Part shown: positions 1,418-15,788 of the stretch, piece by piece
Numbering within the stretch: position 1 is the stretch's first letter
How the letters are laid out: each line of letters opens with the position of its first letter
From: Polyangia bacterium
GTDB lineage: Bacteria; Myxococcota_A; Polyangia; Fen-1088
Length of the DNA: 43,044 nt
Assembly (NCBI GenBank): GCA_036271915.1
Contig: DATAZS010000509.1
Coordinates: forward strand, 1-43,044
Direction: 5' to 3'
The notes under the pieces: model-generated
Databases searched by the model: none
What the model was told of the DNA's origin: nothing
What the model saw: only the letters and a program-made list of their open reading frames with translations
Translations under genes and position numbers: made by a program

Positions 1418-2470
1418 TCACCGGAACCGCCACCAGCCCCCGAGGGCCAACGAGAACAAAGGTCCCGACAGGCTGGCAACCTGCGCGCCGCCGTCGAAGA
1501 TCTCGACGGGATGAACGGGAACGCCGAAGGCCCCCGTGAGCGAGAGCCCGAAGGCGGGCGCGACGCGGACAGCGCCACGGAGGCCCGCGCTCAAATACAG
1601 CGCGGTCACCGAGGTGTCGGCGCCGCGTGCGCCGGGCCGCGGCTCGCCGGAGAGGCTCACGTGCATGAGTCGCCCGTCCCCGAGGACCTCGAGGTGCCAC
1701 CGGCGCCCGTGCGGAGGCAGCGAGAGCGCCGCGCCTGCGCTCGCATCGATCGATGTCCCGTGGACGGCGCCGTCGACCGCGTGCGTGGGCGCTTGAGCGC
1801 GAAGGCCGAACTTCGCTTCGAAGGCCAACGACGGCGCGACGGCGACGCGTCCCTCGACGTCGACGCCGGCCTGATCGACGCCGCCGCCGAAGTGATCTGC
1901 CGCCAGCGCGGCGCCGAGCTGCCACCGGTCGTCGCTCGCTCGCGTCGTCGCCGGGGTCGCGATGGCTTTCGTGATCGCGGCGGGAACGGGACGGGAGGGC
2001 GAGGGCGCGTCCGGGAGCGTGAGCTCGAGCCAGCTCGCCCGCAGGAGCTCGTCGACGGCGAGCGCCACGGTGAGCGGCCTCGCGTCGGGCGGCACGGCCC
2101 GCAGGTCCACCTCGCGCGCGACGCGTTTCGCCGTGATCGCGTCGCGAATCACGATCGACATGATCGAGTCCTTCGATCCGGCGAGCTCCACCTCGCTCGC
2201 GTCGTCTGCCGCCTCCGCGCCCGCGACGCACAGCTCGAGGTGGCGGGATCTCAACCCTGCCTCGAGCTGCGTCGCCAACTGTGCGCGGAAGACCACGTCG
2301 ACGGGCACGTCGACCTCGACCAAGCGGACGACGGGCGTTCCGGAAGATCCGCAGGTCAGCGTTGGGTGGGGCGCCTCCGCGCGCGCCGGCTTCGCGAGCA
2401 ACAGCAACAGCAGCAGCGCCGCGCGGGCGCGACTGCTCGCGCGCACGAGGGAGGGAGCTACTCGGTACAA
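1418..2470 (-). CDS. Secreted hypothetical protein, possibly an outer-membrane beta-barrel-like protein
   Basis: Track ORF of 350 aa. Signal peptide RARAALLLLLLLAKPARAEA. The C-terminal half has alternating Gly/Ala/hydrophobic beta-strand-like composition and ends in GGWWRFR. It lies 35 nt upstream of the Cys-rich lipoprotein gene. Confidence 0.7.
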   Translation of the reverse strand: MYRVAPSLVRASSRARAALLLLLLLAKPARAEAPHPTLTCGSSGTPVVRLVEVDVPVDVVFRAQLATQLEAGLRSRHLELCVAGAEAADDASEVELAGSKDSIMSIVIRDAITAKRVAREVDLRAVPPDARPLTVALAVDELLRASWLELTLPDAPSPSRPVPAAITKAIATPATTRASDDRWQLGAALAADHFGGGVDQAGVDVEGRVAVAPSLAFEAKFGLRAQAPTHAVDGAVHGTSIDASAGAALSLPPHGRRWHLEVLGDGRLMHVSLSGEPRPGARGADTSVTALYLSAGLRGAVRVAPAFGLSLTGAFGVPVHPVEIFDGGAQVASLSGPLFSLALGGWWRFR

Positions 2471-3522
2471 CGCGCGACGATCTTCTCTCGGTGAACGCCC
2501 TGTGGATAGCGCGACAGGTAGGTCGCGCGGGCTTCGAGACAGCGTTCCCGATCCCCGGCGGCTTCGTAGGCTTCGACCAGTCGGGCCTGCGCGTCCTGCC
2601 GGAATGGCGCGTCGGTGATGGAGAGGGCATCTCTAAACGCCGCCGCGGCGCCGCGAGGATCGCCGAGCTGATCCAGGCGGAGCCGGCCGAGCTCGAACGC
2701 CGCCAAGCCGGCGCGTGGATCCGACGGATGACGAACGCGCAGGAGGTTGAACAGGCGAGCCGCCGCCGCTGGGTCGTTCGCTGCGCGGAACGCCTCCGCG
2801 CGGATGAGCAGGTCCTTGGTGCTCTCTTCGCCACCGACATTCCTGATTGCTGGGCGCATCTGCGCCGAGGACGCTGGGGCGCTTCCCGGGAGCGGCGTCG
2901 CGACGGGCGGCGTTCCGTCGATCGTCGTGGACCATGTCTCGCCCGCGTCGAGCACGAGTTGATCGCCGGCGTCCGATCGGCCGTCGTCGGCGCGACTCAC
3001 GCGCACGCGTCCGCGCGCCACCTCGACCTCGAGGACGGTCGCGCCGCCATTTTCGAGGAGACGCTCCCGAAAGCGAGCCGCCGAGACCTTGCTCTCGTAG
3101 CCGCGCGACACGACGACGAATGGCTTGCCGTCCGCGGGAAAAACCTCGAGATCAAGGCCACCTCGTTCGAGCGTCATGGCAATACGCTCGGCGCGTGCGG
3201 AGCTCAACGTCACCTTGCTGCCCGGGTCCAGGACGGCGCGCGAGCCGTCGGCCAGCGTGATGGTCTCGCCGCCCGCGGGCGCCTCGATCGTGGTGCCCAA
3301 GGTCGCGGCGGGGACTCGAGCCGCAACCCGATCTCCACCTCGCCGGACCGCGAAGAGGCCCAGCCCACACACGGAGACGGCCGCCGCGGTCAGGAGGACG
3401 AGCCGCCGCTGACGGCGTCGCGGGCCAGCGCGCTCGACGATCGCCGCCACCTGGCGCTCGAGTCTCGCTTCGTCGAGCGCTGGCGAAACGTGACGCCCCA
3501 ATGATTTCGAGGTCTGGGTCAT
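2458..3522 (-). CDS. FecR-like anti-sigma factor with a C-terminal TPR-like region
   Basis: Internal ATG at 3522 (MTQTSKSLGRHVSPALDEARLERQ) of track ORF 2458..4335, forming an ATGA overlap with the stop of the sigma gene. It has one TM segment (LVLLTAAAVSVCGLGLFAV), a FecR-type beta-rich periplasmic part and a helical TPR-like tail. The upstream 271 codons of the track ORF are Arg/Pro junk that overlaps the sigma gene. Confidence 0.8.
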   Translation of the reverse strand: MTQTSKSLGRHVSPALDEARLERQVAAIVERAGPRRRQRRLVLLTAAAVSVCGLGLFAVRRGGDRVAARVPAATLGTTIEAPAGGETITLADGSRAVLDPGSKVTLSSARAERIAMTLERGGLDLEVFPADGKPFVVVSRGYESKVSAARFRERLLENGGATVLEVEVARGRVRVSRADDGRSDAGDQLVLDAGETWSTTIDGTPPVATPLPGSAPASSAQMRPAIRNVGGEESTKDLLIRAEAFRAANDPAAAARLFNLLRVRHPSDPRAGLAAFELGRLRLDQLGDPRGAAAAFRDALSITDAPFRQDAQARLVEAYEAAGDRERCLEARATYLSRYPQGVHREKIVARCTE

Positions 3523-4106
3523 CGTCCCTCGCCGCGCAGAAAGCTGTCGCGCAAGGCCACCTCGGCGGTCGTGATCCGCCGTTTCACGGTCGCGAGGGAC
3601 GCCCCCGTGAGCTTGGCGATCTCGACGAGGCCGAGCCCCTCGACACGCTGAAGGAGGAGAGGGATGCGCAGCGCCGCCGGGAGCCGCTCTGCCAACGCAT
3701 AGAGCCGGCGCAGCTCGAGCGCCTCGTCTTGGGGGACCGACGGTGCAATCAAGGCGTCGAGGTCGATCGCGAGCAGCGCGCGCCCGAGGCCCAGACGGGC
3801 CAGCATGCGTCGTCGGCGGATGGCCTTGCCGACGGTGCGAACGAGAATGCCGCAGATCCAAGCCTCGAACGCCTGCGGATCTTGAAGTCTGTCGAGCGCG
3901 CCGAAGGCGGCCGCGAAGCTGTCCTGGACCACGTCGTCGACATCGCCGTCGCGTCCGAGCAGCCGCAACGCGAGGCCGTTCACGGCCCGCACGTGTCGGC
4001 GCACGAGGATCTCGGCAGAGAACGCGTCGCCGCGACGGGCAGCCTCCACGAGCTGCGCGTCGGAAGACGGGGCGTCGGCACGAAGCCGCGGGACGGCTCG
4101 AAGCAT
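3519..4106 (-). CDS. ECF (sigma-70 family group 4) RNA polymerase sigma factor
   Basis: Region 2 (DVVQDSFAAAFGAL, FEAWICGILVR) and region 4 HTH (GLGLVEIAKLTGASLATVKRRITTA) are present. I place the start at ATG 4106 (MLRAVPRL). The track start at 4148 is a TTG and adds 14 residues. Confidence 0.9.
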   Translation of the reverse strand: MLRAVPRLRADAPSSDAQLVEAARRGDAFSAEILVRRHVRAVNGLALRLLGRDGDVDDVVQDSFAAAFGALDRLQDPQAFEAWICGILVRTVGKAIRRRRMLARLGLGRALLAIDLDALIAPSVPQDEALELRRLYALAERLPAALRIPLLLQRVEGLGLVEIAKLTGASLATVKRRITTAEVALRDSFLRGEGR

Positions 4107-4169
4107 CACCACGCGTGAAAGGTACCCCCAGCGGACAGAACAGCTCAATGCCGCGTGGATCAGGTCGCG

Positions 4170-4442
4170 CTAGGCGGCGATCGCTGCCGGGACCTGGATG
4201 AGTCGTTGAGCATCGGTCGCCTCGAGCTCGGTTCGCGCGTACGTGCTCGACCAGCGACGAAGGTCCGCCGCGGCGCAGCTCGCGCGTATCCCGCGATCGA
4301 GGACCTTCGAGCGCAACACAAAGTCCCGCGTCCACGCCGACCGGATCGCCTCTTGAAAGACCTTCGCTTGCTCGAGCGCCTCGGTCTCGTTGTCGAGCCC
4401 CTCGTCCTCCAGCCCCGTCACGATAAGCTTGTTTGCGTCCAT
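4170..4442 (-). CDS. Small acidic hypothetical protein (90 aa) between cheB and the ECF sigma gene
   Basis: ATG 4442 (MDANKLIVTGLEDEGLDNETEALEQAKVF...) is in frame with the 3' end of track ORF 4170..5051. Composition and G/C third positions are reasonable. I recognise no domain. Confidence 0.45.
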   Translation of the reverse strand: MDANKLIVTGLEDEGLDNETEALEQAKVFQEAIRSAWTRDFVLRSKVLDRGIRASCAAADLRRWSSTYARTELEATDAQRLIQVPAAIAA

Positions 4443-4570: not shown

Positions 4571-5599
4571 CTAGACGCTCTTCAAGATCAGGTCGGCCAT
4601 GTCTTCGATCGACGCGGTGCCGTCGGAGAAACCGGCCTCGACGACCGCCCGCGGCATCCCGTAGACGACACAGGATCCTTCGGACTCGGTCAGCGTGCGG
4701 CCGCGAGCGCCGTGAATGGCGCGCGCGCCCGCGACGCCGTCGTTGCCCATGCCCGTGAGGACGACGCCCAGAACCGCAGATCCGAGCGCGGCGGCGGCGC
4801 TCTCGAACAGCACGTCGACCGAGGGCAAGAACGGGGACGCCGTGGGCGTCGCATCGAGGTGCGTCGTGATGGTGCCCCCGTCGGAGCGGAGGCGAAGGTT
4901 CACGCCGCCGCGCGCGATCGCGACGCTGCCGGGCGCGAGCGTGGCGCCCTCGGACGCCTCGAACACGTGCAGCGCGCAGGCCTCGTCGAGCCGCCGCGCG
5001 AGCGCGTCCGTGTAGCCCGCCGGGATGTGGAGCGCGACGGCGACGGCGCACGGCAGGTCGCCGGGCAGGGCGGTGAGGAGCCGGGTGAGGGCCTGCGGTC
5101 CGCCGGTCGAGGTGCCGATGACGATCAGGCGCACGTCTCCCGTCGCGACAGAGAGCGGGCGGGGCGCGGGCGCCGGCGCGACGAGCCGACGATGCGAGCC
5201 GCCCGCGGCGATGACCTTCGCGACGAGCTCGCTCGACAGCTCGTACAACCGATCGGTCGCGAGCGCCGTTGGTTTCTGAACGAGGTCGACGGCGCCGATC
5301 TGCAAGGCCTCGACACCGAGGGCGCTGTTGCTGTCGGAGATGCTGACGATCACGACGCGTGGTCCCCCGTCGGGCGGCAGCGCGCGCAACACGCCGAGAC
5401 CGTCGAGGTTGGGCATCACGAGATCGAGCGTGACGACGTCCGGCTTCAGCTCGGCGATCTTCTCGAGCGCCTCGAGGCCGTCGCGTGCGACGCCCACGAC
5501 CTCGAGCGCTCTGCTCACGGAGAGCGTCTCGCGGAGGACCTTGCGCGCGAAGGCCGAGTCGTCGACGACGAGGACACGAAGGGGGCGGGCGGGGTTCAT
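4571..5599 (-). CDS. cheB: Chemotaxis response regulator protein-glutamate methylesterase CheB (REC + methylesterase)
   Basis: N-terminal receiver (VLVVDDS, VVTLDLVMP). The catalytic motifs are present: GTSTGGP (Ser), ALHIPAGY (His) and TGMGNDG (Asp). There is a 4-nt overlap with the cheR stop. Confidence 0.95.
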   Translation of the reverse strand: MNPARPLRVLVVDDSAFARKVLRETLSVSRALEVVGVARDGLEALEKIAELKPDVVTLDLVMPNLDGLGVLRALPPDGGPRVVIVSISDSNSALGVEALQIGAVDLVQKPTALATDRLYELSSELVAKVIAAGGSHRRLVAPAPAPRPLSVATGDVRLIVIGTSTGGPQALTRLLTALPGDLPCAVAVALHIPAGYTDALARRLDEACALHVFEASEGATLAPGSVAIARGGVNLRLRSDGGTITTHLDATPTASPFLPSVDVLFESAAAALGSAVLGVVLTGMGNDGVAGARAIHGARGRTLTESEGSCVVYGMPRAVVEAGFSDGTASIEDMADLILKSV

Positions 5600-6414
5600 G
5601 AAACCTTTTTGTAGAGGAAGACGCCGCTCTGCTCTTCGCAGCGCAGCGACGTGCCGAAGCGGAGGAGCGACTCCGAGATCCCGACGAAGAGGGCGCCGTC
5701 GGGAGCGAGGCGCGCGCCCAACCGCTCGATGACCTGCCGCGCGGTCTCGTCGCTAAAATAAATGAGGACGTTGCGGCAGAAGATCACGTCGAACGTCCCC
5801 AGGTCAGCGACGGCGGCGTCATCCATGAGGTTGATCCTCCGCCAATCGATGCGCTGCGTGAGGCCCGGGTCGATCGTGACCTCTCGCTCCTCGACGCGCA
5901 GGCGCGAGGCCGCGAACGCGGGAACATCGGCGCGAACGGCGCGGCGGCTGAAGCGGCTCGAGCGCGCGCGCGAAAGAGCCGCGGCGTTGATGTCGCTCGC
6001 GACGATGTCGACGGCGGACAGCAAGCCGCGCGCCGCCAGCAACAACGCGAGCGTGTGTGGCTCCTCACCCGTGGCGCACGCCGCGCACCAGACGCGCGGG
6101 CGCCTTCCGGCCTCGACGAGGGGCCCGATGAGGTCGTCGACCGCCGCTTCGAGCGGCGCCAGCTCGCGAAACAAGTAGGTCTCTCCGACGACCAGCGCCT
6201 CGATGAGGCTGTCGAGCTCGCGCTGACTCTGCGGGTCGTAGCGAAGAAAGTAGTAGTAGTCGAGCAGCGACTCGAACCCTGCTTCGACGGCGCGCGCGCC
6301 GACCTTCTCGGCGAAGATGGGCGCGTGCGGAACGTCGAAGTGCAGGCCGATCCGCTCTGCGACGAGCGCGCTCAGGATCGAGAACACCTGCGGGGACATC
6401 GGCAGAGGCGGCAT
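5596..6414 (-). CDS. cheR: Chemotaxis protein methyltransferase CheR
   Basis: CheR_N helix bundle plus a SAM-binding domain: ETYLFRE, VWCAACATGEEPHTLALLL, DVIFCRNVLIYF. Confidence 0.95.
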   Translation of the reverse strand: MPPLPMSPQVFSILSALVAERIGLHFDVPHAPIFAEKVGARAVEAGFESLLDYYYFLRYDPQSQRELDSLIEALVVGETYLFRELAPLEAAVDDLIGPLVEAGRRPRVWCAACATGEEPHTLALLLAARGLLSAVDIVASDINAAALSRARSSRFSRRAVRADVPAFAASRLRVEEREVTIDPGLTQRIDWRRINLMDDAAVADLGTFDVIFCRNVLIYFSDETARQVIERLGARLAPDGALFVGISESLLRFGTSLRCEEQSGVFLYKKVS

Positions 6415-6421
6415 GTCCGCC

Positions 6422-8770
6422 TCAGCGCGACAGGAGCAGGGAGCAGATCTGACGGACCTCTGGCTGGGGATCGGCGCTGGCGGCGGTTCGGAGCGCCGCG
6501 AGCGCCTCTTTGCTGCCGAGGACGGCGAGGGCGCTCGCGGCGGCTTTTCGAGCCGCGACGTTGCGCATCGACATCGCCTGCACGAGCGCCGCAGAGGCGT
6601 CGGGGCGTCGCATGCGCGCGAGCGCCGACGTGAGCGCGGGGGCCGTCTCGTCGTCCGCTTCCTCGAGCCCGACGACGAGGCCCGCGATTCGACCTTCGAC
6701 GTGCAGGGACAGCGCCGCCAGCACCTGCTCGGTCACGGTCCCCGTCGCCAGCAAGCTGATGAGCGTTCGCGTCGCGGGGCCGCCCGTCATCGCCGCGAGG
6801 AAGCCGATCGACGCCGTGCGCACGCTCTCGTCGGGATCGGCCGCCGCCACGCGGAACGCGCTCAGCACCGACAGCGATCGGAAGCCGGCGAGCGCCGAGA
6901 TCGCGACCAGGCGAGTCGCCGCGTCGGGTGAGCGCGCCGCGTTCAGAATGAGCGGCAGCGCGTCGGAGCGCTGCGCGACGCCGAGCCCGACGAGCGCCGC
7001 GCGCTGGATGTCGCTGTCGGCGTCCACGGCCGCGGCGTTGAGGGCCTGCGCCGCGGCGTCGCCGCGCAGGCAGGACAGCGCCTCGACGGCGGCGACGCGC
7101 ACCTGGCCCGCGGGATCGGCGAGCAGCCTGATGATCGCCTCAGCCGCCGGCTCGGAGGCCAGCTTGCCCAGCGCCTGGCACGCGTAGTAGCGCACCCACG
7201 CGTCGGGATCGCCGAGGCCCTTCAGCAAGTACGCGCTCGCGCGCAGATCGCCGACGCATTGGCCGAGGCTGCGCATCGCCGCCGCGCGCGTCTTGTCGGA
7301 GGCGTCCTTCGCGGCCGCCAACAGCGCGTCGAACGCGCGCGGATCGTCCATGAAGGGCAGCCCCTGGACGGCCGACTCGCGCACGCGCTCGTCGGGATCG
7401 CGCAGCGCCTCGATGAAGACGTCGAGCGCGAGCGACGAACCGAAATAGCTGAGAATCCGCAGGGCCGCGCGCCGGATGCGCACGTCGGACGATCGCGCGG
7501 CCTCGACGGCGAGTCGGTCGGCCTCGTGGCTGCCGAGGGATTGAATCGCCGCGACCGCGGCGTACGAGACGCGCGGGTCGGCGTCGGCGAGCACGCGGAA
7601 GAGCGCGCCCACCGCGGGGACGGCGCCCATGCGCGCGAGCGCCTCGCAGGCGAGGACGCGCACGTCGGCATCGGGGTCGTTCAGACAATCGACGACGTCG
7701 AGGGTCGCGCTCGCGCTCGAGATGAACGGCAGCAGGGCGCGCTTGTGCGTGCTGTCGCCGTCGCGAATTCCCTGCAGGATCTGCTCCTCGACCTGCGGGC
7801 CGAGCCCGCGCAAAGCCGCCGAGGCGGCGTCTGCGACGGGTGGCGCCGCGTCGAGGAGCGCCGTCAACGCCGGCGCCGCCGACGGATCGTGCGCGACGCC
7901 CAACAAGACGCAGATGGCCACCTGCTCGCCGGGCTCGCCCTGAGTCAGTGCGAGGATCAGCGGTCGAACGATCCCCGCGTCGCGGGCCCCGGCCGCGATC
8001 TCGGCGGCGACGACGTCGCCGTTGCCAGCGCGCTCTTGATAGCGCTGGCGGAGATCGGCGAGCGAGACGGCACACAGGCGCACGATGGCGCTCGCTGATT
8101 TCGAGATGAGCCGTACGAGGGGCGCGACGGCCGCCACGTCGCCCGTTCTGCCCAACGCGCGCGCGGCTTCCGCGGCGTACTGCGGCTGGTCGAGCAGCGC
8201 CGTCAAGGGCGCTACGGCGCGCGGATCGCCGCTGCGCCCCAGCACCTCGATCGCGGGGAAGGCTCGGAAGAAGTTCGCGCTCTTGACGGCGTCCACCAAG
8301 GAATCGACGGCGGCGCGGCCGCCGATGCGCCCAAGCGCCTCGATGGCCGCGGCGGCGACGTTGTCATCGGCGTGCCGGCTGAGCGCGATCACGGTCGACA
8401 GCGCCGAGGTCGTGCGCCGCCGCCCGAGGATCTGGGCGATGTCGGCCAGCACGGGGATCTCGACGTCGGCGGCGGCCATCGCGGCCAGCGCCGGGTCGGC
8501 GTCGCCCGTGAAGGCGGCCAGGGCATCCACCGTGGCGGCGATGCGTCCTTCGTTGTCTCGTCGGTCCTGCAGCGCCTCGCAGAGGAGACCCACGGCGCCC
8601 GGCCCGCTGGCCGCGAGCGCCGCGACGACGGCGCGCCGCACGGCCCAGTTCGGGTCGTCCAACATGCCGATGAGCCGATCGACGCCGCCGCCCTTGGCGA
8701 GGCGCTCGATCTCTTCGACCCGCCGCAGATCCTCGGGGGAGAAGGCTATGCGGCCCGCGACGAGGCTCAT
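6422..8770 (-). CDS. HEAT-repeat (PBS-lyase-type) protein, 782 aa, embedded in the che operon (Cpc7-like)
   Basis: About 16 units of the pattern D(P/A)Dxx(V/I)RxxAxxALGxxG by eye, for example [87 protein letters not shown] overlap with the mcp stop at 8767-8770. Confidence 0.9.
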
Positions 8771-11352
8771 GCACGCTCGGCGGGCGCTGACGACGCGCCC
8801 TGAGCTTCGCGCAGCGCCGTGAGATCGGCCGTGAGGTTCTCGATGGCTTCCGCCTGCTGCGCGTTGGCGGTCCTGACCTTCCCGATGCTCGCGGCCACGG
8901 CGCCGACGTCCTTGGCGGTCGTGATCGCGCCCTTCGCGTGCTGCGCGACCGCCGAGACGATCTCTTTGACGTTCACGCGCATGTCGACGACGGCCTTCGA
9001 GATCTGGGAGCTGGCCGTCGCCTGCTCGGCGGCGGTGCGCGCGATCGTTCCGACGCCCGTGGTCTGCTTGGTCGCCGTGCCCGACAGGGCAGTCAAAGCG
9101 TCGGCCTGCTCCGCGACGGCGCGCGCGGTCTGCTTCGCGATGCGGCGAACGTCGTCGCCGGCCTTCGCGAGGCCTTCGAGCGCCTTGCCTTGCTCTCCCG
9201 TCGCCTTGGTGACCTCGGCGGCGAGCTTCGCGACTTGTCGAGTCGCCACCTCCATCTGTCCCATGGCGCGTGACTGCTCGGCGATCGCCTTCGCGCTCTG
9301 CGTCGTCTCTCTCTTCGTGCTCTCGACGGCCGTCGTCACCTCGGCAGCGCCGCGCGCTTGCTCGGCCAACCCCGTCACCATCCGCTGCGAAGCCGTCGTG
9401 ACCTCGGTCGCGAGCGTCGTCAGTCCCGTGAGCGCCCGCGTCTGCTCGACCATGGCGGCGGTCGTTTGCTGCGCCACCGTGCGCATGCGGGCCGCCGCCT
9501 TCGCGAGCTGCCCGGCGCCCGAGGCCTGCTCCTCGGCGGCGCGCGCCACCTTCTGAATGTTCGTGCCCAGCTGGGTCGTCGTCTTGACGTTCGCGCGGAT
9601 GGCGCGCGCCTGCTCGCCCGTCGCGTCCTTCGTCTGCTTGGCCATGCGCCGCATCTCGGTCGCGGCCTGGCTCAGGCTCTGGCTCGCGTTGACCTGCTCG
9701 GCGGCAGCGCGCGCGACGGCCTTGCCCTCGTCGCTGACGCGCGTCGTGCTCTGCGTGAGGGCCTGGACGGCCTGCGCCTGCTCGCCGCTCGCGCGCTCGA
9801 TGTCGGCGACACCGCGGCTCACGACGTCGATGCCCTGCAGGATCGAGCCGAGCGCCTTCTCGGCGTCGCCCGCGAGCCGCGCGCCCTCGTCGGCGACCTT
9901 GAGGCCGTCGCTCGAGGCCGTGACGGCGTCTCGCGCCGTGCTCTGCAGGCCTCGCACGATCTTCGCGATGTCGGCGCTCGCCGCCGCCGCGCGATCGGAC
10001 AGCGCGCGGATCTCCTCGGCGACGACGGCGAAGCCGCGGCCGTGCTCCCCGGCGCGCGCCGCCTCGATGCTCGCGTTGAGCGACAGCAGGTTCGTGCGGT
10101 CGGCGAGGAGGTTGATGGTCTGGACGATGTCGCCGATCTCCTCGGTGCGCTTGCCCATCTCCTTGATGACGGAGGACGACTCCTGCATCGCTTGTCGAAT
10201 GCCGCCCATGCCCGCGATCGATCGCCCGACGACGGCGCCACCGTCGCGCGCCGTCGCCGTCACCTCGTCGGTCGTGCGACGGGTCGTCGTGATGAGCTCG
10301 ACGATGCGCCGCGCGGCCCCTTCGGCCTGACCCGACGCCGCGGCATTGCTGCTCGCGAGCGTGTTGATTTGATCCGCCGAGCGCGCCATCGCGTGCGCCG
10401 AGCGCGCGAGCTGCTCGATGCTCGTGGCATTCGCGTCGATGACCGCGGCGTTCTTCTCGGCGGTCGCGGCGACCTCCTCGACGGAGGCGGCCAGCTCCGT
10501 GAGCGTGGTCGAGGAGCTCGCGGCGGCGCCTTCGAGCTCCTTGACCTGCTCGGCGATGCCGCGCGCCGAGCGCGACATCTGCTCCGCCGTCGCGGAGGTC
10601 TCCTCGACGGCCGTCGCCATCTCGGCGCCGTCCTTCGCGACGCGTTCGACGGTCGAGGCCGTGCTCGCGATGGCGCCCGTCATCTCGGCGATGCGCGCGC
10701 CGACGCCCTCGGCGTCCGTCGCGAGCCGGGTGACCCCCTTCGCCATGCCGCCCACCGTCGACGTGACCTGCTCCATCGCGGCCGCCGTCGATTGGCCGCG
10801 CTCGGCGAGCTCCTTGATGCTGAGCGTGCTCTCCGTCGTCGCGGCGAGCAGCTCTTCGGCCGACGCCGCCAGATCCTCGGCGTTCGCGCCCACGCCCTTG
10901 ATCGAGCGCGTCGTCTCTTCGAGCATGGCCGCCGTCGACTCGGTCGACGTCGCGAGCGCCTCGCCGTCCTTCTTGACGCCGCCCACGGACGAGGCGATCT
11001 CGCGCAGCCCGCTGCTCACCGTCTGCTGCGCCTGCTCGAGCTCCTTGGCGGTCTCGGCGGCGTGGCCTTGTGAGCGCGCGAGGCTCTGCACGGAGGTCGC
11101 CGTCTCCTCGATGCCGGCCGCGAGGGCCTCCATCGAGACGCGCACCTGTTCGCTCGCGGCGGCCTGCTCATTGCCACCGGCCGCGAGCCGCGTCGCGGCC
11201 TCCTCGATCGACGAGGCCTGCGCCGCCGAGTCGCGGAGCGCGCGCGCGGCGTCGGTCGCGCCCGACAGGGCGTCGTCGAGGCTCACGCGGCGGTTGCCGT
11301 TCGTCCCGCTCGCGTTCTTCGTGCTACTCGGCATGCTCCCGCTCCTCGCCAA
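8767..11352 (-). CDS. mcp: Soluble (no TM segment) methyl-accepting chemotaxis protein, 861 aa, with a central signalling hairpin
   Basis: The canonical MCP tip [50 protein letters not shown] sits at residues 404-454 (AGEHGRGF is encoded at 10030-10053). There is no hydrophobic stretch, and Ala/Glu/Thr/Gln-rich helical sequence flanks it on both sides. Alternative start at ATG 11334. Either start overlaps the cheW 3' end. Confidence 0.93.
8770..9783 (-). repeat. In-frame 84-nt / 28-residue periodic array (about 12 units) forming the C-terminal arm of the MCP
   Basis: An 'EQ' dipeptide occurs at residues 524, 552, 580, 608, 636, 664, 692, 720, 748 and 776. That is ten consecutive intervals of exactly 28 residues. 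Degenerate QH (804) and QQ (832) follow in the same phase. The units are diverged in sequence, so they are not recent DNA duplicates. Confidence 0.85.
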
Positions 11353-11761
11353 TGACCTTCGTGAAATCGATCAACATGAGCAGCCGGTTGCCCGCTTGCG
11401 CGACGGCCTTCACGAGCCCGTCGGTCTGCTGCACGACGACGGGCGGCGGCGGCTGAAAGTCGGCGGCCGGGATCTTCAGCACCTCGCGCGCGCTGTCGAC
11501 CAAGAGGCCGACGGTTCGCTCGCCGCGCTTCATGACGATGACGCGTGAGTCGATCGTCGCCGCGATCCGCTCGAGGCCGAAGACGACGCGCATGTCGAGC
11601 ACGGGGACGACGCGGCCGCGGATCTGTACGAGCCCCGCGACCTGCTCGGCGGCGCCCGGCACCTTCGTCGCGGCCGTGAATGACTCCATCTGCAGGACGT
11701 CGGCCGCGGGCAGGACGTACTCGACGTCCGCGATCTTGCACAGCACGTGGAGCTCGCTCAC
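11324..11761 (-). CDS. cheW: Chemotaxis coupling protein CheW
   Basis: 145-aa single CheW-like domain ([36 protein letters not shown]). 4-nt overlap with the cheA stop. Confidence 0.93.
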
Positions 11762-13827
11762 GACGGCTCCCCCGTCCCATCGGCGACGAGCCGTCCGCCG
11801 AGCGCCGCCAGGTCGAGGACGAGCGTGGGCCGTCCGTCGCCGAGGTCCGTCGTTCCCGACACGCCGTGCACGCGCACGAGCTGATCCTCGAGGGGGCGCA
11901 CGACGACCTCTTGCTGACCGAGCATGCGATCGACCGTGAACGCGAACGGCTCGCCGTTGCGCCTCACGATGATGGCCTTGCGGTGCAGGTCGTCGCCGAC
12001 GCCGAGGCCCAGGATCTCCTCGAGGCGCAGCACGGGCACCGTCTCGCCGCGACGATGAATCATGTCGGTGGCGCGCGCGGCGCGGCGACGATCGGGCTCG
12101 CCCCGCGGCGCCTTTCGCCGATCGGGGCCGCGCACCGTCTTCGCGAGATCGATCTCCTGGATCTCCTCTACCATGGCGACGGGCACGACGAAGGTCTCAC
12201 CGCCGCAGAGGAACGAGAAGGCGTCGACGATCGTGATGCTGAGCGGAATGCGCAGCGAGAACATCGTCCCTCTCCCCTTGGTCGTCGTCATGGACAGCTC
12301 GCCGCGCAGCTCGTCGACGGCGATGCGCTTGACGACGTCCATGCCGACGCCGCGACCGCTCGTCGTCGTGACCTCGGTCTTCGTCGAGAGGCCGGGCCGC
12401 GTCAGCAGCGCGAGCAGGCCGTCGTCGGTCGTGGGAACGGGCGCGCCAGCGCGGCGCGCGACGGCGACTGCGTCGACGCCGCGACCGTCGTCGGTGACGG
12501 TCAATTCGAGCTGGCTGTCGGACAGCTCGTGGCACGCCACCGTGACGAGCCCCGTCTCGGGCTTCCCCGCGGCGCGCCGCTCGGCCGGCGTCTCGAGCGC
12601 GTGGTCGACGGCGTTGCGCACGAGGTGGACGATCGCGGGGAAGATCCGCTCGGCGACGGCCTTGTCGAGCTCGGCGTTGCCCGTCGTCATCGACAGACGC
12701 GCGTCCTTGCCCGTCGTGCGGCTCAGCCCGCGAACGATGAGGGGAATGCGCTCGAGCAGCTCGGTCACCGACACCATGCGCGCGCGCATGATCGAGGCGC
12801 GCAGGTCGCGCAGCTGGCGGCCGTTCTCCGAGATCACCTGGGCGAGCGCGCGCACGTCGGCGCCGGCGGCCCGCATCTCGGCCATCGTCCTTCGAAGGCG
12901 AAACTGGGTCACGACGAGCGCGGACAGGCGCTCGAGCGCCTCGTCGAGCCGCGCGACCTCGACGCGAACGACGCCGCGATGATGGAGATCGTCGTCGGAG
13001 GTCTCTTCGTCGAGTGCTTCCAAATTGGAAGAGCCGGAAGAGCCGGAAGAGTCAGACGAAGGCGCGAGCAAACTGACAGCCGTCAACGCTTCGGGCGTCG
13101 TCGCGGCGGCGGTCGCGAGCTCGGCGTCCGCGCCCTCCGTGAGCAGGACCAGCGCGAAGGCGAGGCCGCCTGGCGAGGCGTCGGTCGTCGCCGTCGAGAC
13201 CGGGACGACCTTGACGATCTCGGCGAGCGTCGCGATGCGCTCGCGGACCGAGGTGATCGTGATCCCCTCGCTCGCGCGCACCGGCGTGGGCACGAAGTGG
13301 ACGATGAGCGCGCGTCGACCGTCGACGAGGCCTTGCGTGAGCTGGCCCCGCTCGGCGGCGTTCATCTTGCCCCAGAGCTCGGCCGGCATCGTCGTCTCGA
13401 CGCTCGCGGCGGCGCGCTCGTCGCCCGTCTGGCGGAGCGCGTTCAACGCGTCGACGAGCTTCGCGGGCGCCGCGGCGACGGTCTTTCGTTTCGCGAGCGC
13501 CTGCACGCGATTCTCGACGGCCTTCACGCCCGCGAGCAGCAGGCTGACGGCGCCCGCGGGCAGCCGCCCAGCGGCCCGATCCGCCTCGCGCAGCACCGAC
13601 TCCATGGCGTGCGCGATGTCGACGATGGGCTCGACGCCCACCATGGCCGCGAGGCCTTTGATGGTATGGAACGAGCGAAAGAGCTCGCGCACCTGTCGCG
13701 GCGTCGCTTGTCCCTTGGCGACAGCCTCCTCGACCGACAGAAGGTTCGTGTTGGCCGACGCGAGGTGCTCCTCGGCCTCGGCCGTGAACCCTGCGATGAA
13801 GTCGGAGGCCTCGAACCCGTCGCTCAC
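11758..13827 (-). CDS. cheA: Chemotaxis histidine kinase CheA
   Basis: HPt P1 with the phospho-His motif FRSFHTIKGLAAMVG, a dimerisation region, HATPase (HLVRNAVDHA, TSGRGVGMDVV) and a C-terminal CheW-like P5 domain. There is no C-terminal receiver. Confidence 0.95.
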   Translation of the reverse strand: MSDGFEASDFIAGFTAEAEEHLASANTNLLSVEEAVAKGQATPRQVRELFRSFHTIKGLAAMVGVEPIVDIAHAMESVLREADRAAGRLPAGAVSLLLAGVKAVENRVQALAKRKTVAAAPAKLVDALNALRQTGDERAAASVETTMPAELWGKMNAAERGQLTQGLVDGRRALIVHFVPTPVRASEGITITSVRERIATLAEIVKVVPVSTATTDASPGGLAFALVLLTEGADAELATAAATTPEALTAVSLLAPSSDSSGSSGSSNLEALDEETSDDDLHHRGVVRVEVARLDEALERLSALVVTQFRLRRTMAEMRAAGADVRALAQVISENGRQLRDLRASIMRARMVSVTELLERIPLIVRGLSRTTGKDARLSMTTGNAELDKAVAERIFPAIVHLVRNAVDHALETPAERRAAGKPETGLVTVACHELSDSQLELTVTDDGRGVDAVAVARRAGAPVPTTDDGLLALLTRPGLSTKTEVTTTSGRGVGMDVVKRIAVDELRGELSMTTTKGRGTMFSLRIPLSITIVDAFSFLCGGETFVVPVAMVEEIQEIDLAKTVRGPDRRKAPRGEPDRRRAARATDMIHRRGETVPVLRLEEILGLGVGDDLHRKAIIVRRNGEPFAFTVDRMLGQQEVVVRPLEDQLVRVHGVSGTTDLGDGRPTLVLDLAALGGRLVADGTGEPS
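13027..13053 (-). repeat. 9-bp tandem repeat x3 (GGAAGAGCC GGAAGAGCC GGAAGAGTC) inside the cheA linker
   Basis: Read directly on the plus strand. It encodes the SSGSSGSS part of the Ser/Asp-rich linker ...APSSDSSGSSGSSNLEALDEETSDDD... between the N-terminal region and the dimerisation domain. Confidence 0.9.
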
Positions 13828-14210
13828 GTCTGGATCCCTGGACGTCCGTTGGTCAACGATTTGACCTCGCCCAGGAGTGCGTCCGGTGAGAAGGGCTTCG
13901 TCATGAAGCGCGTCGCGCCCGCGGCGAGGGCGCGCGCGCGCGAGCTCTCGTCACCGCGCGTCGTCACGACGAGGATCGGCAACGTGCGCAGCTTGTCCTG
14001 ACCGCGAATGAACTCGATGACCTCGTAGCCGCTGATGTCGGGCATGTTGAGATCGAGCACGACGAAGTCGAACGGCCTGAGGGAGAGCCGCTCGAGCGCC
14101 TCGAGGCCGCTGGCCGCTTGCGTGAAGCTCACGCCCTCGATGCCACGCAGACACGCGATCTCCATCTCGCGCATCACCTTGCTGTCGTCGACGATGAGGG
14201 CTTCGGGCAT
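13824..14210 (-). CDS. cheY: Single-domain CheY-like response regulator, first gene of the che operon
   Basis: 128-aa receiver with LIVDDS, FVVLDLNMPDISG, LVVTTRG and FMTKPF. 4-nt overlap with the cheA start. Confidence 0.93.
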   Translation of the reverse strand: MPEALIVDDSKVMREMEIACLRGIEGVSFTQAASGLEALERLSLRPFDFVVLDLNMPDISGYEVIEFIRGQDKLRTLPILVVTTRGDESSRARALAAGATRFMTKPFSPDALLGEVKSLTNGRPGIQT

Positions 14211-14315: not shown

Positions 14316-15788
14316 GTGCAGGGCGCCGTAAAATCACGACCTTCCGTTTGGGTCGTCGATGACAGCCCCCTCGACACGGAGCGTGCCCGCAAGGTGCTCG
14401 AGGTCCCGTACGACGTCAGGGTGTTCGCTGACGGCTCCGCGATGCTCGAGCATCTCGCGAGCCATCAACCGCCGGACGTGTTGGTCCTCGACTGGGTCAT
14501 GCCCGGCGTGTCCGGCATCGAGGTCTGCCGCTTCCTTCGCTCGGGCAGCGCGGCGCAGCCGCAGCTCGCGATCTTGTTGCTGACGACGCAGACGCGCACG
14601 GACGACATCGTCGAAGGGCTCGCGGCCGGCGCGAACGACTACCTCGTCAAGCCGTACGCCGATCCCGAGCTGCGCGCGCGCGTCGACGCGCTCGTGCGCT
14701 GGAACGGCCTGCTCGATCGCGCGCAGAAGGCCGAGGCGAGCGTCCTGCAATTGCTCGAGCACGCCCCCGATCCGCTCATCAGCGTCGACCGCGACCATCG
14801 CATCTCGTACGTCAACGCCGAGGCCCAGCGCGTCTTCGGTCAGAGCGCGTCGCAGCTCGCCGGGAAGACTTTGAAGGAGGTGTTGCCGACGTTCCCCGCG
14901 GACCGGCTCGGCGACGCCGTTCGCACGGCGCTGCCGCTCGCCGACATCGAGATCGAAGAGCAAATCTACTCGCCGTCGGTGCGGCTGCTCCCGAGCTCGA
15001 GCGACGGTGGCCTCACGATCGCGCTGCGCGACGTGACCTCGCGGCGGAAGAAGGAGTCGCGGCGCCTCGATTTTTATACGGTGATCGCGCACGACCTGCG
15101 CTCGCCGCTCGGCGCGATGCTCATGCGCACCGATCTCATGCTGCGCGGCCACCGCGGCGTCCTCTCGACGGAGATGATCGCCGATCTTCGGAAGATGGAC
15201 GCCAACATGCGCAGGCTCGTCGCGCTCATCAACGACTTCCTGGACTTTGCGCGCATGGAAGACGCCGCCCACAAGTTGGCGCGCGCGCGCGTCGATCTCG
15301 CCGACCTCATGAACGAGGTGGCCGACGAGTTCAAGCCCCTCGTCGAGAGCACCCACCAGCGCATCGAGCTCGAGGCCGAGCGAGGTGTCGTCGTCGCGCT
15401 CGGCGACAAGAGCCGTCTGCAACAGGTCCTCACGAACCTTCTCGCCAACGCCATCAAGTTCGCGCCCGCGGGCGGCGTCATCGTGCTGCGCGCGCGCATG
15501 CAAGGTCACTGGTGCGAGATCAGCGTCGAGGACGACGGGCCGGGCATTCCGGCTGAGCTCTTGCCGACGCTGTTCAAACGGTACAGCCGCGGACCGACGG
15601 GGATCGGGCAAGCGGCAGGCACGGGGCTGGGCCTTCTCATCGTGCGCGAGATCGTCGAAGCCCACGGCGGAACGGCCGGCGTCGAGAGCGAGCCCAATCG
15701 AGGAAGCCGATTTTGGTTTCGCATCCCGACTGCGGATCCAGGCTTCGTCGAGACCGGACTCGGGATCGCCGAATCGCCGACGGTGTGA
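14316..15788 (+). CDS. REC-PAS-HisKA-HATPase sensor kinase (receiver at the N-terminus)
   Basis: GTG start. Receiver motifs VWVVDDS, VLVLDWVMPGVSG, LLLTTQT and YLVKPY. PAS region (LLEHAPDPLISVDRDHRISYVNAEAQRVFG). H-box VIAHDLRSPL, N-box NLLANAIKF, G-box GTGLGLLIV. Confidence 0.93.
   Translation: MQGAVKSRPSVWVVDDSPLDTERARKVLEVPYDVRVFADGSAMLEHLASHQPPDVLVLDWVMPGVSGIEVCRFLRSGSAAQPQLAILLLTTQTRTDDIVEGLAAGANDYLVKPYADPELRARVDALVRWNGLLDRAQKAEASVLQLLEHAPDPLISVDRDHRISYVNAEAQRVFGQSASQLAGKTLKEVLPTFPADRLGDAVRTALPLADIEIEEQIYSPSVRLLPSSSDGGLTIALRDVTSRRKKESRRLDFYTVIAHDLRSPLGAMLMRTDLMLRGHRGVLSTEMIADLRKMDANMRRLVALINDFLDFARMEDAAHKLARARVDLADLMNEVADEFKPLVESTHQRIELEAERGVVVALGDKSRLQQVLTNLLANAIKFAPAGGVIVLRARMQGHWCEISVEDDGPGIPAELLPTLFKRYSRGPTGIGQAAGTGLGLLIVREIVEAHGGTAGVESEPNRGSRFWFRIPTADPGFVETGLGIAESPTV

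Follow-up and report, generated by a model that had tools for sequence, protein, structure and literature searches.

A giant soluble chemoreceptor with predicted length-matched arms in a Che7-type operon of a Polyangia bacterium

Chemoreceptors (methyl-accepting chemotaxis proteins; MCPs) are sorted into heptad classes, of which twelve, ranging from 24H to 64H, are listed in the MiST3 paper. No class longer than 64H was found described in the literature that we searched. Here, we characterize a giant soluble MCP encoded at positions 8767–11352 (minus strand) of a 43,044 nt stretch of DNA from a Polyangia bacterium (assembly GCA_036271915.1, contig DATAZS010000509.1); this whole stretch is referred to below as the window. 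The gene probably codes for a cytoplasmic receptor dedicated to a Che7-type operon, and two matched arms of ~59 heptads each would form its hairpin of ~60 nm.

A similar soluble receptor, Mcp7 (MXAN_6962), has been reported from Myxococcus xanthus. Mcp7 is 821 amino acids (aa) in length, lacks transmembrane (TM) segments and a HAMP domain, and carries its MCPsignal domain at residues 317–534 (PMC3945109). According to that paper, Mcp7-GFP forms fast-moving cytoplasmic clusters, Mcp7 binds CheW7, and class 40H takes in every M. xanthus MCP other than DifA and McpK (and so, by implication, Mcp7 too); the length of Mcp7 draws no comment there. Secondary citations link the Che7 pathway to a HEAT-repeat protein, to the coupling of aggregation with sporulation, and to resistance to temperature stress. 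The locus-tag numbering, from MXAN_6965 to 6959, suggests the gene order CheY7-CheA7-CheW7-Mcp7-Cpc7-CheR7-CheB7.

Compared by published description, the window MCP is like Mcp7 in being soluble, in its length of ~820–860 aa, in lacking TM segments and HAMP, and in having a central signalling domain. Hence, both the pathway type (Che7) and a similar soluble receptor (Mcp7) are already known. What appears undescribed so far is (i) a hairpin of ~118 heptads, (ii) a sister size class of ~96 heptads, and (iii) modules of 28 and 56 residues; neither the hairpin nor the modules feature in the published Mcp7 account. An earlier reading of the window from the sequence alone (the sequence-only reading) had left room for proteins of this length and periodicity to form a described class already. 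A similar protein does have a name; its length and heptad modules have no description.

Several other known systems share single features with the window MCP. The receptors of sandwiched cytoplasmic arrays (Rhodobacter sphaeroides TlpC and TlpT; Vibrio cholerae cluster I, DosM) are, likewise, soluble MCPs encoded together with their own CheA and CheW. Known cytoplasmic arrays consist of two receptor layers between baseplates 27–35 nm apart, whereas receptors of ~60 nm would need ~100 nm or a different geometry. The coiled-coil methyl-acceptor MAC (MiST3 paper) is without a signalling tip, unlike the giant MCP, which has both a tip and an MCPsignal domain.

A central tip and a single heptad register

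The features of the giant MCP are as follows.

8767–11352, minus strand: giant soluble MCP open reading frame (ORF), 861 aa from TTG 11352 or 855 aa if from ATG 11334 (ORF listing, Pfam)
11281–11352, minus strand: N-terminal non-helical tail, residues 1–24, with P8 and an NG(N/R) motif (structure model with confidence score below 50; family tails)
10054–11280, minus strand: N-arm helix, residues 25–433, ~59 heptads (constant heptad phase, modelled helix)
10030–10053, minus strand: hairpin tip AGEHGRGF, residues 434–441 (sequence position, family invariance, Foldseek)
8797–10029, minus strand: C-arm helix, residues 442–852, ~59 heptads (heptad phase, modelled helix)
9733–10260, minus strand: Pfam MCPsignal match, residues 365–540 (Pfam)

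Residue numbers are counted from TTG 11352. The ATG at 11334 (residue 7), with a Shine-Dalgarno sequence (GGAG..GGGAG) upstream, is likely the more plausible start judging by this sequence context; the protein would then be 855 aa, and the true numbering may be six lower. The product is a bona fide chemoreceptor whose centre is occupied by a single canonical kinase-control tip: MCPsignal (PF00015) scores 136.8 bits over residues 365–540, against a cutoff of 34.6, and the conserved hairpin-tip sequence at residues 421–449 is unchanged throughout the family of relatives described below. The translation places AGEHGRGF at residues 434–441 of 861, confirming the central position first read by eye. 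The accompanying claim that TM, HAMP and sensor domains are absent also held up, with the Pfam scan returning no domain besides MCPsignal and no 19-residue window of the protein being TM-like (maximum Kyte-Doolittle value 1.03). Ala makes up 22% of the protein; Trp, Tyr and Cys are missing altogether, Phe occurs once, and the two Pro are residues 8 and 857. NCBIfam holds no specific family for it, every match being far under cutoff, and a set of 5.8 billion proteins holds no close match (top identity, 43%).

A DosM-like double receptor was considered and dropped: receptors of the DosM type have two tips, whereas the giant MCP has a single G(E/D)xGRGF motif and hence one. Among the distant matches only, we observed soluble MCPs of ~650 aa with two tips that look DosM-type, three of which come from a Firmicutes metagenome-assembled genome (MAG) (P0024, P0026, P0029, P0031, P0036, P0038, P0044, P0045, P0052, P0079). 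Separately, many family members carry NG(R/N/K) motifs (e.g., NGRG, NGKR, TNGNRR) in short unstructured tails at their N- and C-termini; in the giant MCP such motifs lie at residues 13–21.

The length of the arms was assessed from the phase of the 3.5-residue hydrophobic periodicity, using a Fourier measure. Over residues 25–852, heptad phase coherence is R = 0.96, and the phase is held within ~78° across 115 windows; shuffled sequences give 0.16 (maximum 0.45) and the adjoining HEAT-repeat protein 0.13. The giant MCP contains ~118 heptads, free of stutters and skips. Counting in-phase heptads and taking the class list from the MiST3 paper, this amounts to ~59 heptads per arm (~118H) against a catalogue maximum of 64H (32 per arm), which bears out the initial estimate of roughly 120 heptads, or about twice the longest class. 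In being a symmetric antiparallel hairpin whose members align without indels, the giant MCP family is like the Alexander-Zhulin and MiST3 classes; the nearest non-giant relatives of the giant MCP are 64H-sized MCPs with TM and HAMP.

The closest solved structure, Thermotoga maritima TM1143 (2ch7), aligns to residues 362–568 (E = 2e-27) nearly without gaps, the exception being one single-residue gap near the C-terminal end. TM1143 is a 44H protein with arms of ~150 residues on a transmembrane sensor, unlike the giant MCP with its ~410-residue arms and no sensor. An AlphaFold2 (AF2) monomer model of residues 190–690, built on a 60-sequence alignment, is an unbroken helix (predicted local distance difference test [pLDDT] 81.8). 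It superposes on the MCP structures 9a65_A (318 columns, root mean square deviation [RMSD] 3.2 Å), 2ch7, 1qu7 and 6s1k, and in a Foldseek search the model tip matches the Escherichia coli core-unit chain 6s1k_E with an RMSD of 1.1 Å over 99 columns. A full-length AF2 model, from a 7-sequence alignment (pLDDT 64), is all-helical, with helices at residues 25–246, 254–613 and 621–852. Foldseek aligns both models to 2ch7 over >300 columns. The AF2 alignment for the distal arms stayed shallow because a profile search of the 5.8-billion-protein set added fragments only.

The modelling suggested by the sequence-only reading thus yields, for residues 190–690 as a monomer, a continuous MCP-like hairpin. 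The models give good support to a continuous hairpin over the central ~250 residues per arm, and the distal parts of the arms, modelled as helix with lower confidence, probably continue it. That both arms would be one continuous heptad coiled coil of ~59 heptads each is strongly supported by the register. At 0.148 nm per residue, ~412 residues correspond to an arm length of ~61 nm. Each subunit would be a single antiparallel hairpin ~60 nm long, and the hairpins would dimerise into a four-helix bundle like those of other MCPs, with the tip binding CheW and CheA. Since the giant MCP has no ligand-binding domain, input would probably come via a partner protein or the rod itself.

Two size classes and tandem 28- and 56-residue modules

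Full-length relatives were found in a scan of GTDB species genomes; the family set comprises 15 proteins from four phyla (24–53% identity). The best match from a named genome is an 848 aa protein of Hyalangium versicolor, with 53% identity over the full length; two Polyangiaceae MAGs encode relatives of 844 and 831 aa. Shorter relatives, of 660–722 aa, come from Anaerolineae, Acidobacteriota/Vicinamibacterales and Oleiharenicola lentus (Verrucomicrobiota). The tip is central in all 15 full-length members. Mean N-arm and C-arm lengths are ~425 and ~414 aa in the large group and ~354 and ~337 aa in the short group, which has ~47–48 heptads per arm (~96H). A MAFFT alignment of the 15 is gap-free from around residue 110 to around residue 773, and the short group is without ~80–85 residues at the N-terminus and ~80 at the C-terminus. 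The two stretches found in the large class only are listed here with the repeat modules.

11023–11280, minus strand: distal N-arm extension, around residues 25–110; large (Myxococcota-type) class only (family alignment)
8797–9033, minus strand: distal C-arm extension, around residues 774–852; large class only, the short group ending near 773
10270–10941, minus strand: N-arm 28/56-residue modules, residues 138–361 (module logo, per-module conservation)
8776–9783, minus strand: twelve C-arm 28-residue modules, residues 524–859 (sequence, lag spectra, module logo, A/B conservation)

Across the 15 members, N-arm and C-arm lengths correlate with r = 0.96, and the size difference falls at both termini at once. 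Such a joint length change is what a hairpin with paired ends would require, and the suggestion that arm length is matched on both arms is upheld.

Inspection of the C-arm confirmed the pattern read from the sequence. EQ occurs at residues 524, 552, 580, 608, 636, 664, 692, 720, 748 and 776, every 28 residues, and the phase is carried on by QH (804) and QQ (832). The spacing is exact as claimed; the count of ten intervals is not, given that ten EQ sites span nine (eleven with QH and QQ). The twelve modules open with EQ in ten cases, and with QH or QQ in the final two. A-type and B-type modules alternate, the B-type ones at 552, 608, 664, 720 and 776 carrying M16-R17-(R/K)18. In the 15 relatives, EQ is invariant or nearly so at 524, 552, 580, 608, 664 and 692.

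In the BLOSUM autocorrelation of the C-arm, the proposed lag of 28 is among the peaks (56, 28 and 84; z of 9–13 against shuffles), and the top lags are all multiples of 7. In the 15-sequence family profile, lag 56 exceeds 112, followed by 28 and 84 at about the same height, on both arms; these four stand well over the other multiples of 7, which in turn exceed the non-multiples. The stronger repeat unit is 56 residues (eight heptads), composed of two alternating 28-residue half-units. The N-arm is, in the family profile, as periodic as the C-arm, contrary to the first impression that it is less regular. Of the EE/EQ pairs that had been noted there at 28-residue spacing, those at 138 and 222 are not such pairs (ES and AE, respectively). 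Tandem Repeats Finder detected no DNA tandem repeat with a period of 84 or 168 nt; because a DNA-level repeat is absent, the repeats are old, rather than products of recent amplification or assembly artefact.

The two arms differ in where their conserved polar residues fall. The C-arm half-module reads E1 Q2 a x A a x x L9 … (M/V/L)16 … (V/T/I)23 … A26 (L/T/M)27. Its hydrophobic positions 6, 9, 13, 16, 20, 23 and 27 are a/d positions; since these fix the register, the conserved Gln falls in the core, at d, whereas the Glu falls at c. The EQ of the C-arm probably has a structural role, as a polar core layer that would set the register every fourth heptad, rather than a methylation site. The N-arm module consensus is E-E/Q-T-A-A-S-I-E-E/Q-M-A-A-S-I..., and its half-module reads E1 (E/Q)2 T A A S I7 E8 (E/Q)9 M10 A A S13 I14 … V17 … L24. 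With core positions fixed at 3, 7, 10, 14, 17, 21, 24 and 28, the N-arm E/Q pairs are placed on exposed b,c positions, seven residues apart.

Candidate methylation sites were sought with a strict consensus taken from other species, [ASTG]2-x2-[EQ]2-x2-[ASTG]2, which matches the giant MCP seven times (1.1 ± 1.1 in shuffles). The columns in which five or more of the 15 members match are 166, 194, 278, 292, 552 and 664, several of them in 28-residue phase; the N-arm module region of the giant MCP has matches at 166, 194, 250 and 292. The N-arm motif EExAASxE(E/Q)xAAS resembles the classical methylation-helix sequence of Tsr, EETAASMEQLTATV, with sites E304 and Q311. By this motif resemblance, the N-arm E-E/Q pairs are likely substrates of the CheR and CheB of the operon, which would provide many adaptation sites. 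The C-arm EQ pairs were mostly dropped as methylation sites, the Gln being on core d and only 552 and 664 fitting the strict consensus in several relatives.

The EQ/28 repeat is not confined to the giant MCP: it is lineage-wide, occurring in ordinary transmembrane MCPs as well. A set of 82 ordinary MCPs shows lag peaks at 28, 56 and 84 on both arms, and two of them with arms of ~220 aa, P0137 and P0219, carry four or five perfect EQ+28 modules each. MCPs with TM and HAMP and arms of ~210–240 aa (64H-sized) align to residues 190–645 of the giant MCP. These are HMMER local alignments, used in place of a global MAFFT alignment of ordinary MCPs to the giant one, which scattered gaps of 14 and 28 residues arbitrarily over the repeats. 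Relative to relatives with ~220 aa arms, the giant MCP has ~190 extra residues per arm, or approximately seven 28-mers. One further receptor, P0121, is a two-TM CHASE3 protein without HAMP, with arms of ~333 and ~342 aa (~96 heptads in total), that aligns gaplessly to residues 35–757; P0121 being transmembrane, long arms also occur on membrane receptors.

Of the initial proposal that the arms were extended by modular 4-heptad insertions, the multiples of four heptads stand, with 56 residues the stronger unit; internal insertion does not, growth being distal instead. The alignments strongly support a giant MCP that would extend arms of the ordinary type distally, where those relatives have their membrane, sensor and HAMP portion, and on this comparison it would stand at the far end of a lineage whose arms grow by distal module addition.

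As a side observation, P0219 is a 4HB-HAMP MCP in which five EQ+28 modules are very regular. Its C-terminal tail is rich in Cys and His (CWDILHC…CPAYQ…CWLINGTWC…CMHC) and has the look of a metal-binding segment.

A Che7-type operon

The giant MCP lies within a compact operon whose genes, all of them minus-strand, follow the order CheY-CheA-CheW-MCP-HEAT-CheR-CheB. The genes other than the MCP are listed in operon order.

13824–14210, minus strand: CheY, single-domain response regulator, first gene of the operon (Pfam Response_reg; position kept in loci L001–L003 and L008–L010)
11758–13827, minus strand: CheA histidine kinase with Hpt, dimerisation, HATPase and CheW-like domains (Pfam, NCBIfam CheA models)
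11324–11761, minus strand: CheW adaptor, its stop within the annotated 5' end of the MCP gene (Pfam)
6422–8770, minus strand: HEAT-repeat protein, 782 aa, PBS-lyase/CpcE/NblB-like, Cpc7-type (Pfam HEAT_2, 255.6 bits)
5596–6414, minus strand: CheR methyltransferase (Pfam CheR)
4571–5599, minus strand: CheB methylesterase/deamidase with receiver domain (Pfam CheB_methylest and Response_reg)

As in Che7, the MCP gene of the window operon is followed immediately by a gene for a PBS-lyase-like HEAT-repeat protein, and then by CheR and CheB. The PBS-lyase/CpcE/NblB-like repeats of this protein fit the name Cpc7, and its NCBIfam matches to NblB/CpcE-like models fall under cutoff. Protein sizes in Che7 and at the window locus, in that order, are nearly equal: 683 vs 689 aa (CheA), 148 vs 145 (CheW), 273 vs 272 (CheR) and 348 vs 342 (CheB). 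The M. xanthus Che7 cluster also includes a desaturase gene, des7; no des7-like desaturase gene was seen between CheR and CheB in the window operon.

The same operon order is found in Myxococcota, Chloroflexota and Acidobacteriota loci. The HEAT gene lies 3' of the MCP gene in eight of ten family loci; it is missing in L007, and L005 stops before it. L007, the Verrucomicrobiota locus (Oleiharenicola), reads CheA-CheW-MCP-CheR-CheB, with neither a CheY gene upstream of CheA nor a HEAT gene detected. In the window, the ATG of the HEAT gene overlaps the MCP stop (ATGA, 8767–8770).

Four observations concern the HEAT proteins and the surroundings of the operon. (i) In Chloroflexota and Acidobacteriota loci, the HEAT protein has an extra N-terminal PAS-like domain of ~130 aa (GILTTD…SWD…), which was not found in the HEAT proteins of the window, L001 or L002. 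The PAS-bearing HEAT proteins are encoded at:

L004, 3999–6788
L006, 4414–7098
L009, 8929–11178
L010, 8980–11796

Judging by this domain, sensing in the Chloroflexota and Acidobacteriota loci may fall to the HEAT partner. (ii) A divergent hybrid kinase (receiver-PAS-HisKA-HATPase) adjoins the operon at 14316–15788 (plus strand) of the window; its receiver and kinase domains have weak, partial counterparts (28–53% identity) next to the operon in L002 and L007–L010. (iii) A protein with a FecR domain and TPRs is encoded 3' of CheB on the same strand, at 2458–4335 (minus strand), after a gap of 235 nt. (iv) Positions 7001–17011 of L012, from a Nitrospirota MAG, carry three tandem MCP genes and, after them, genes for CheW, a HEAT-repeat protein, CheR and CheB in that order, a variant of the giant-MCP operon type with receptors of ordinary length.

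Alternative readings and significance

Five points weigh against the reading of this gene as a Che7-type receptor with two matched, continuous arms. The arm-length correlation is driven mostly by two clades, and so by one or two evolutionary events. The distal 165–190 residues of each arm are modelled with modest confidence (pLDDT 55–72 from the 7-sequence alignment), and the full-length model has low-confidence breaks at 247–253 and 614–620, symmetric about the tip. The implied 40H class of Mcp7 sits awkwardly with the affinity of the giant MCP to 44H and long classes. Finally, the candidate methylation sites rest on a consensus from other species and on resemblance to the Tsr sequence.

The two breaks, which are the only ones in the full-length model, could mark an elbow near residues 250 and 617 at which the hairpin folds back as in SMC, MukB and cohesin, giving a particle of ~30 nm with the distal half packed on the proximal half. 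Indeed, Foldseek matches the full-length model to elbow structures of SMC/MukB type (MukB, cohesin, Smc5/6) besides MCP hairpins. However, residues 247–253 and 614–620 are unbroken in the model from the deeper alignment (pLDDT ~78–79), neither Gly nor Pro is conserved there in the family, the heptad phase runs on unperturbed, and ordinary MCPs align through the region as continuous arms. Monomer AF2 tends to compact long rods, and the modelled elbow is most likely a compaction artefact; we consider a folded hairpin unlikely. The giant MCP does share with the arms of SMC, MukB and Rad50 a very long intramolecular antiparallel coiled coil, matched at the level of fold. It is unlike them in having no ATPase head or hinge, with NCBIfam scores far under cutoffs, and the resemblance is that of generic coiled coil. 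It is far less probable still that the flanks are independent, unpaired helical domains (such as a sensor bundle at the N-terminus and a tail at the C-terminus), which would render a count of 120H meaningless. The Pfam match, confined to residues 365–540, and the modest distal model confidence are compatible with such flanks, as the sequence-only reading had itself allowed. Yet a single unbroken heptad register spans both flanks, AF2 gives each of them one long helix and no bundle, the 56-residue period is common to both, length changes at both termini together, and the arms of ordinary MCPs already span residues 190–645; the shared register, shared period and paired length change disfavour separate domains.

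We see next to no chance that the periodicity is a by-product of low complexity, or the ORF not a real gene. The window is ~70% GC with long spurious ORFs on both strands, and the protein is Ala-rich; nevertheless, neither the lags nor the phase coherence arise in shuffles of equal composition, the EQ columns do not vary among relatives that span four phyla and 24–53% identity, and the operon context is conserved. A different question is whether the long arms serve mainly as a scaffold or ruler, not as an adaptation region, and either bind the HEAT protein all along the arms or set a large baseplate spacing in a sandwiched cytoplasmic array, with the E/Q pairs as binding epitopes instead of methylation sites. 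We find this doubtful. The ATGA overlap, the HEAT gene following the MCP gene in eight of ten loci (three phyla), and the PAS-like domain on the Acidobacteriota and Chloroflexota HEAT proteins, which is consistent with an input role, speak for it, as does the fact that receptor length sets the thickness of known cytoplasmic arrays (baseplates 27–35 nm apart). Retention of CheR and CheB in the operon argues instead for methylation; the Oleiharenicola locus has a long MCP and no HEAT gene, and the equally long arms of transmembrane P0121 mean that length is not tied to the HEAT protein or to soluble arrays.

For the preferred reading, a matched-arm receptor of a Che7-type operon, the extra length could serve to enlarge memory capacity, to offer the HEAT protein a docking surface, or to set array geometry. 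Speculatively, and with little confidence in the whole, we suggest that ~96H and ~118H would form a new receptor length class in which the adaptation region has been amplified to at least ten tandem modules per arm. The hairpin would then be a ~60-nm methylation register of high capacity, or long-memory integrator, for a developmental or stress pathway; the HEAT protein would help to read or write it along the rod; and the array, with ~100 nm between baseplates or in a single layer, would be unlike any imaged.

Receptor length is treated as a defining property of chemoreceptors that sets their array compatibility, and the catalogue ends at 64 heptads. A conserved family of ~96 and ~118 heptads would extend the known range nearly two-fold, in four phyla, and would include the Mcp7 of the genetically tractable M. 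xanthus. It would offer a test case for signal transmission along a very long four-helix bundle, for the number of adaptation sites that can be used, and for the assembly of arrays free of the membrane. Within this MCP lineage, growth of long arms by distal 28/56-residue modules on both arms would be a simple evolutionary rule.

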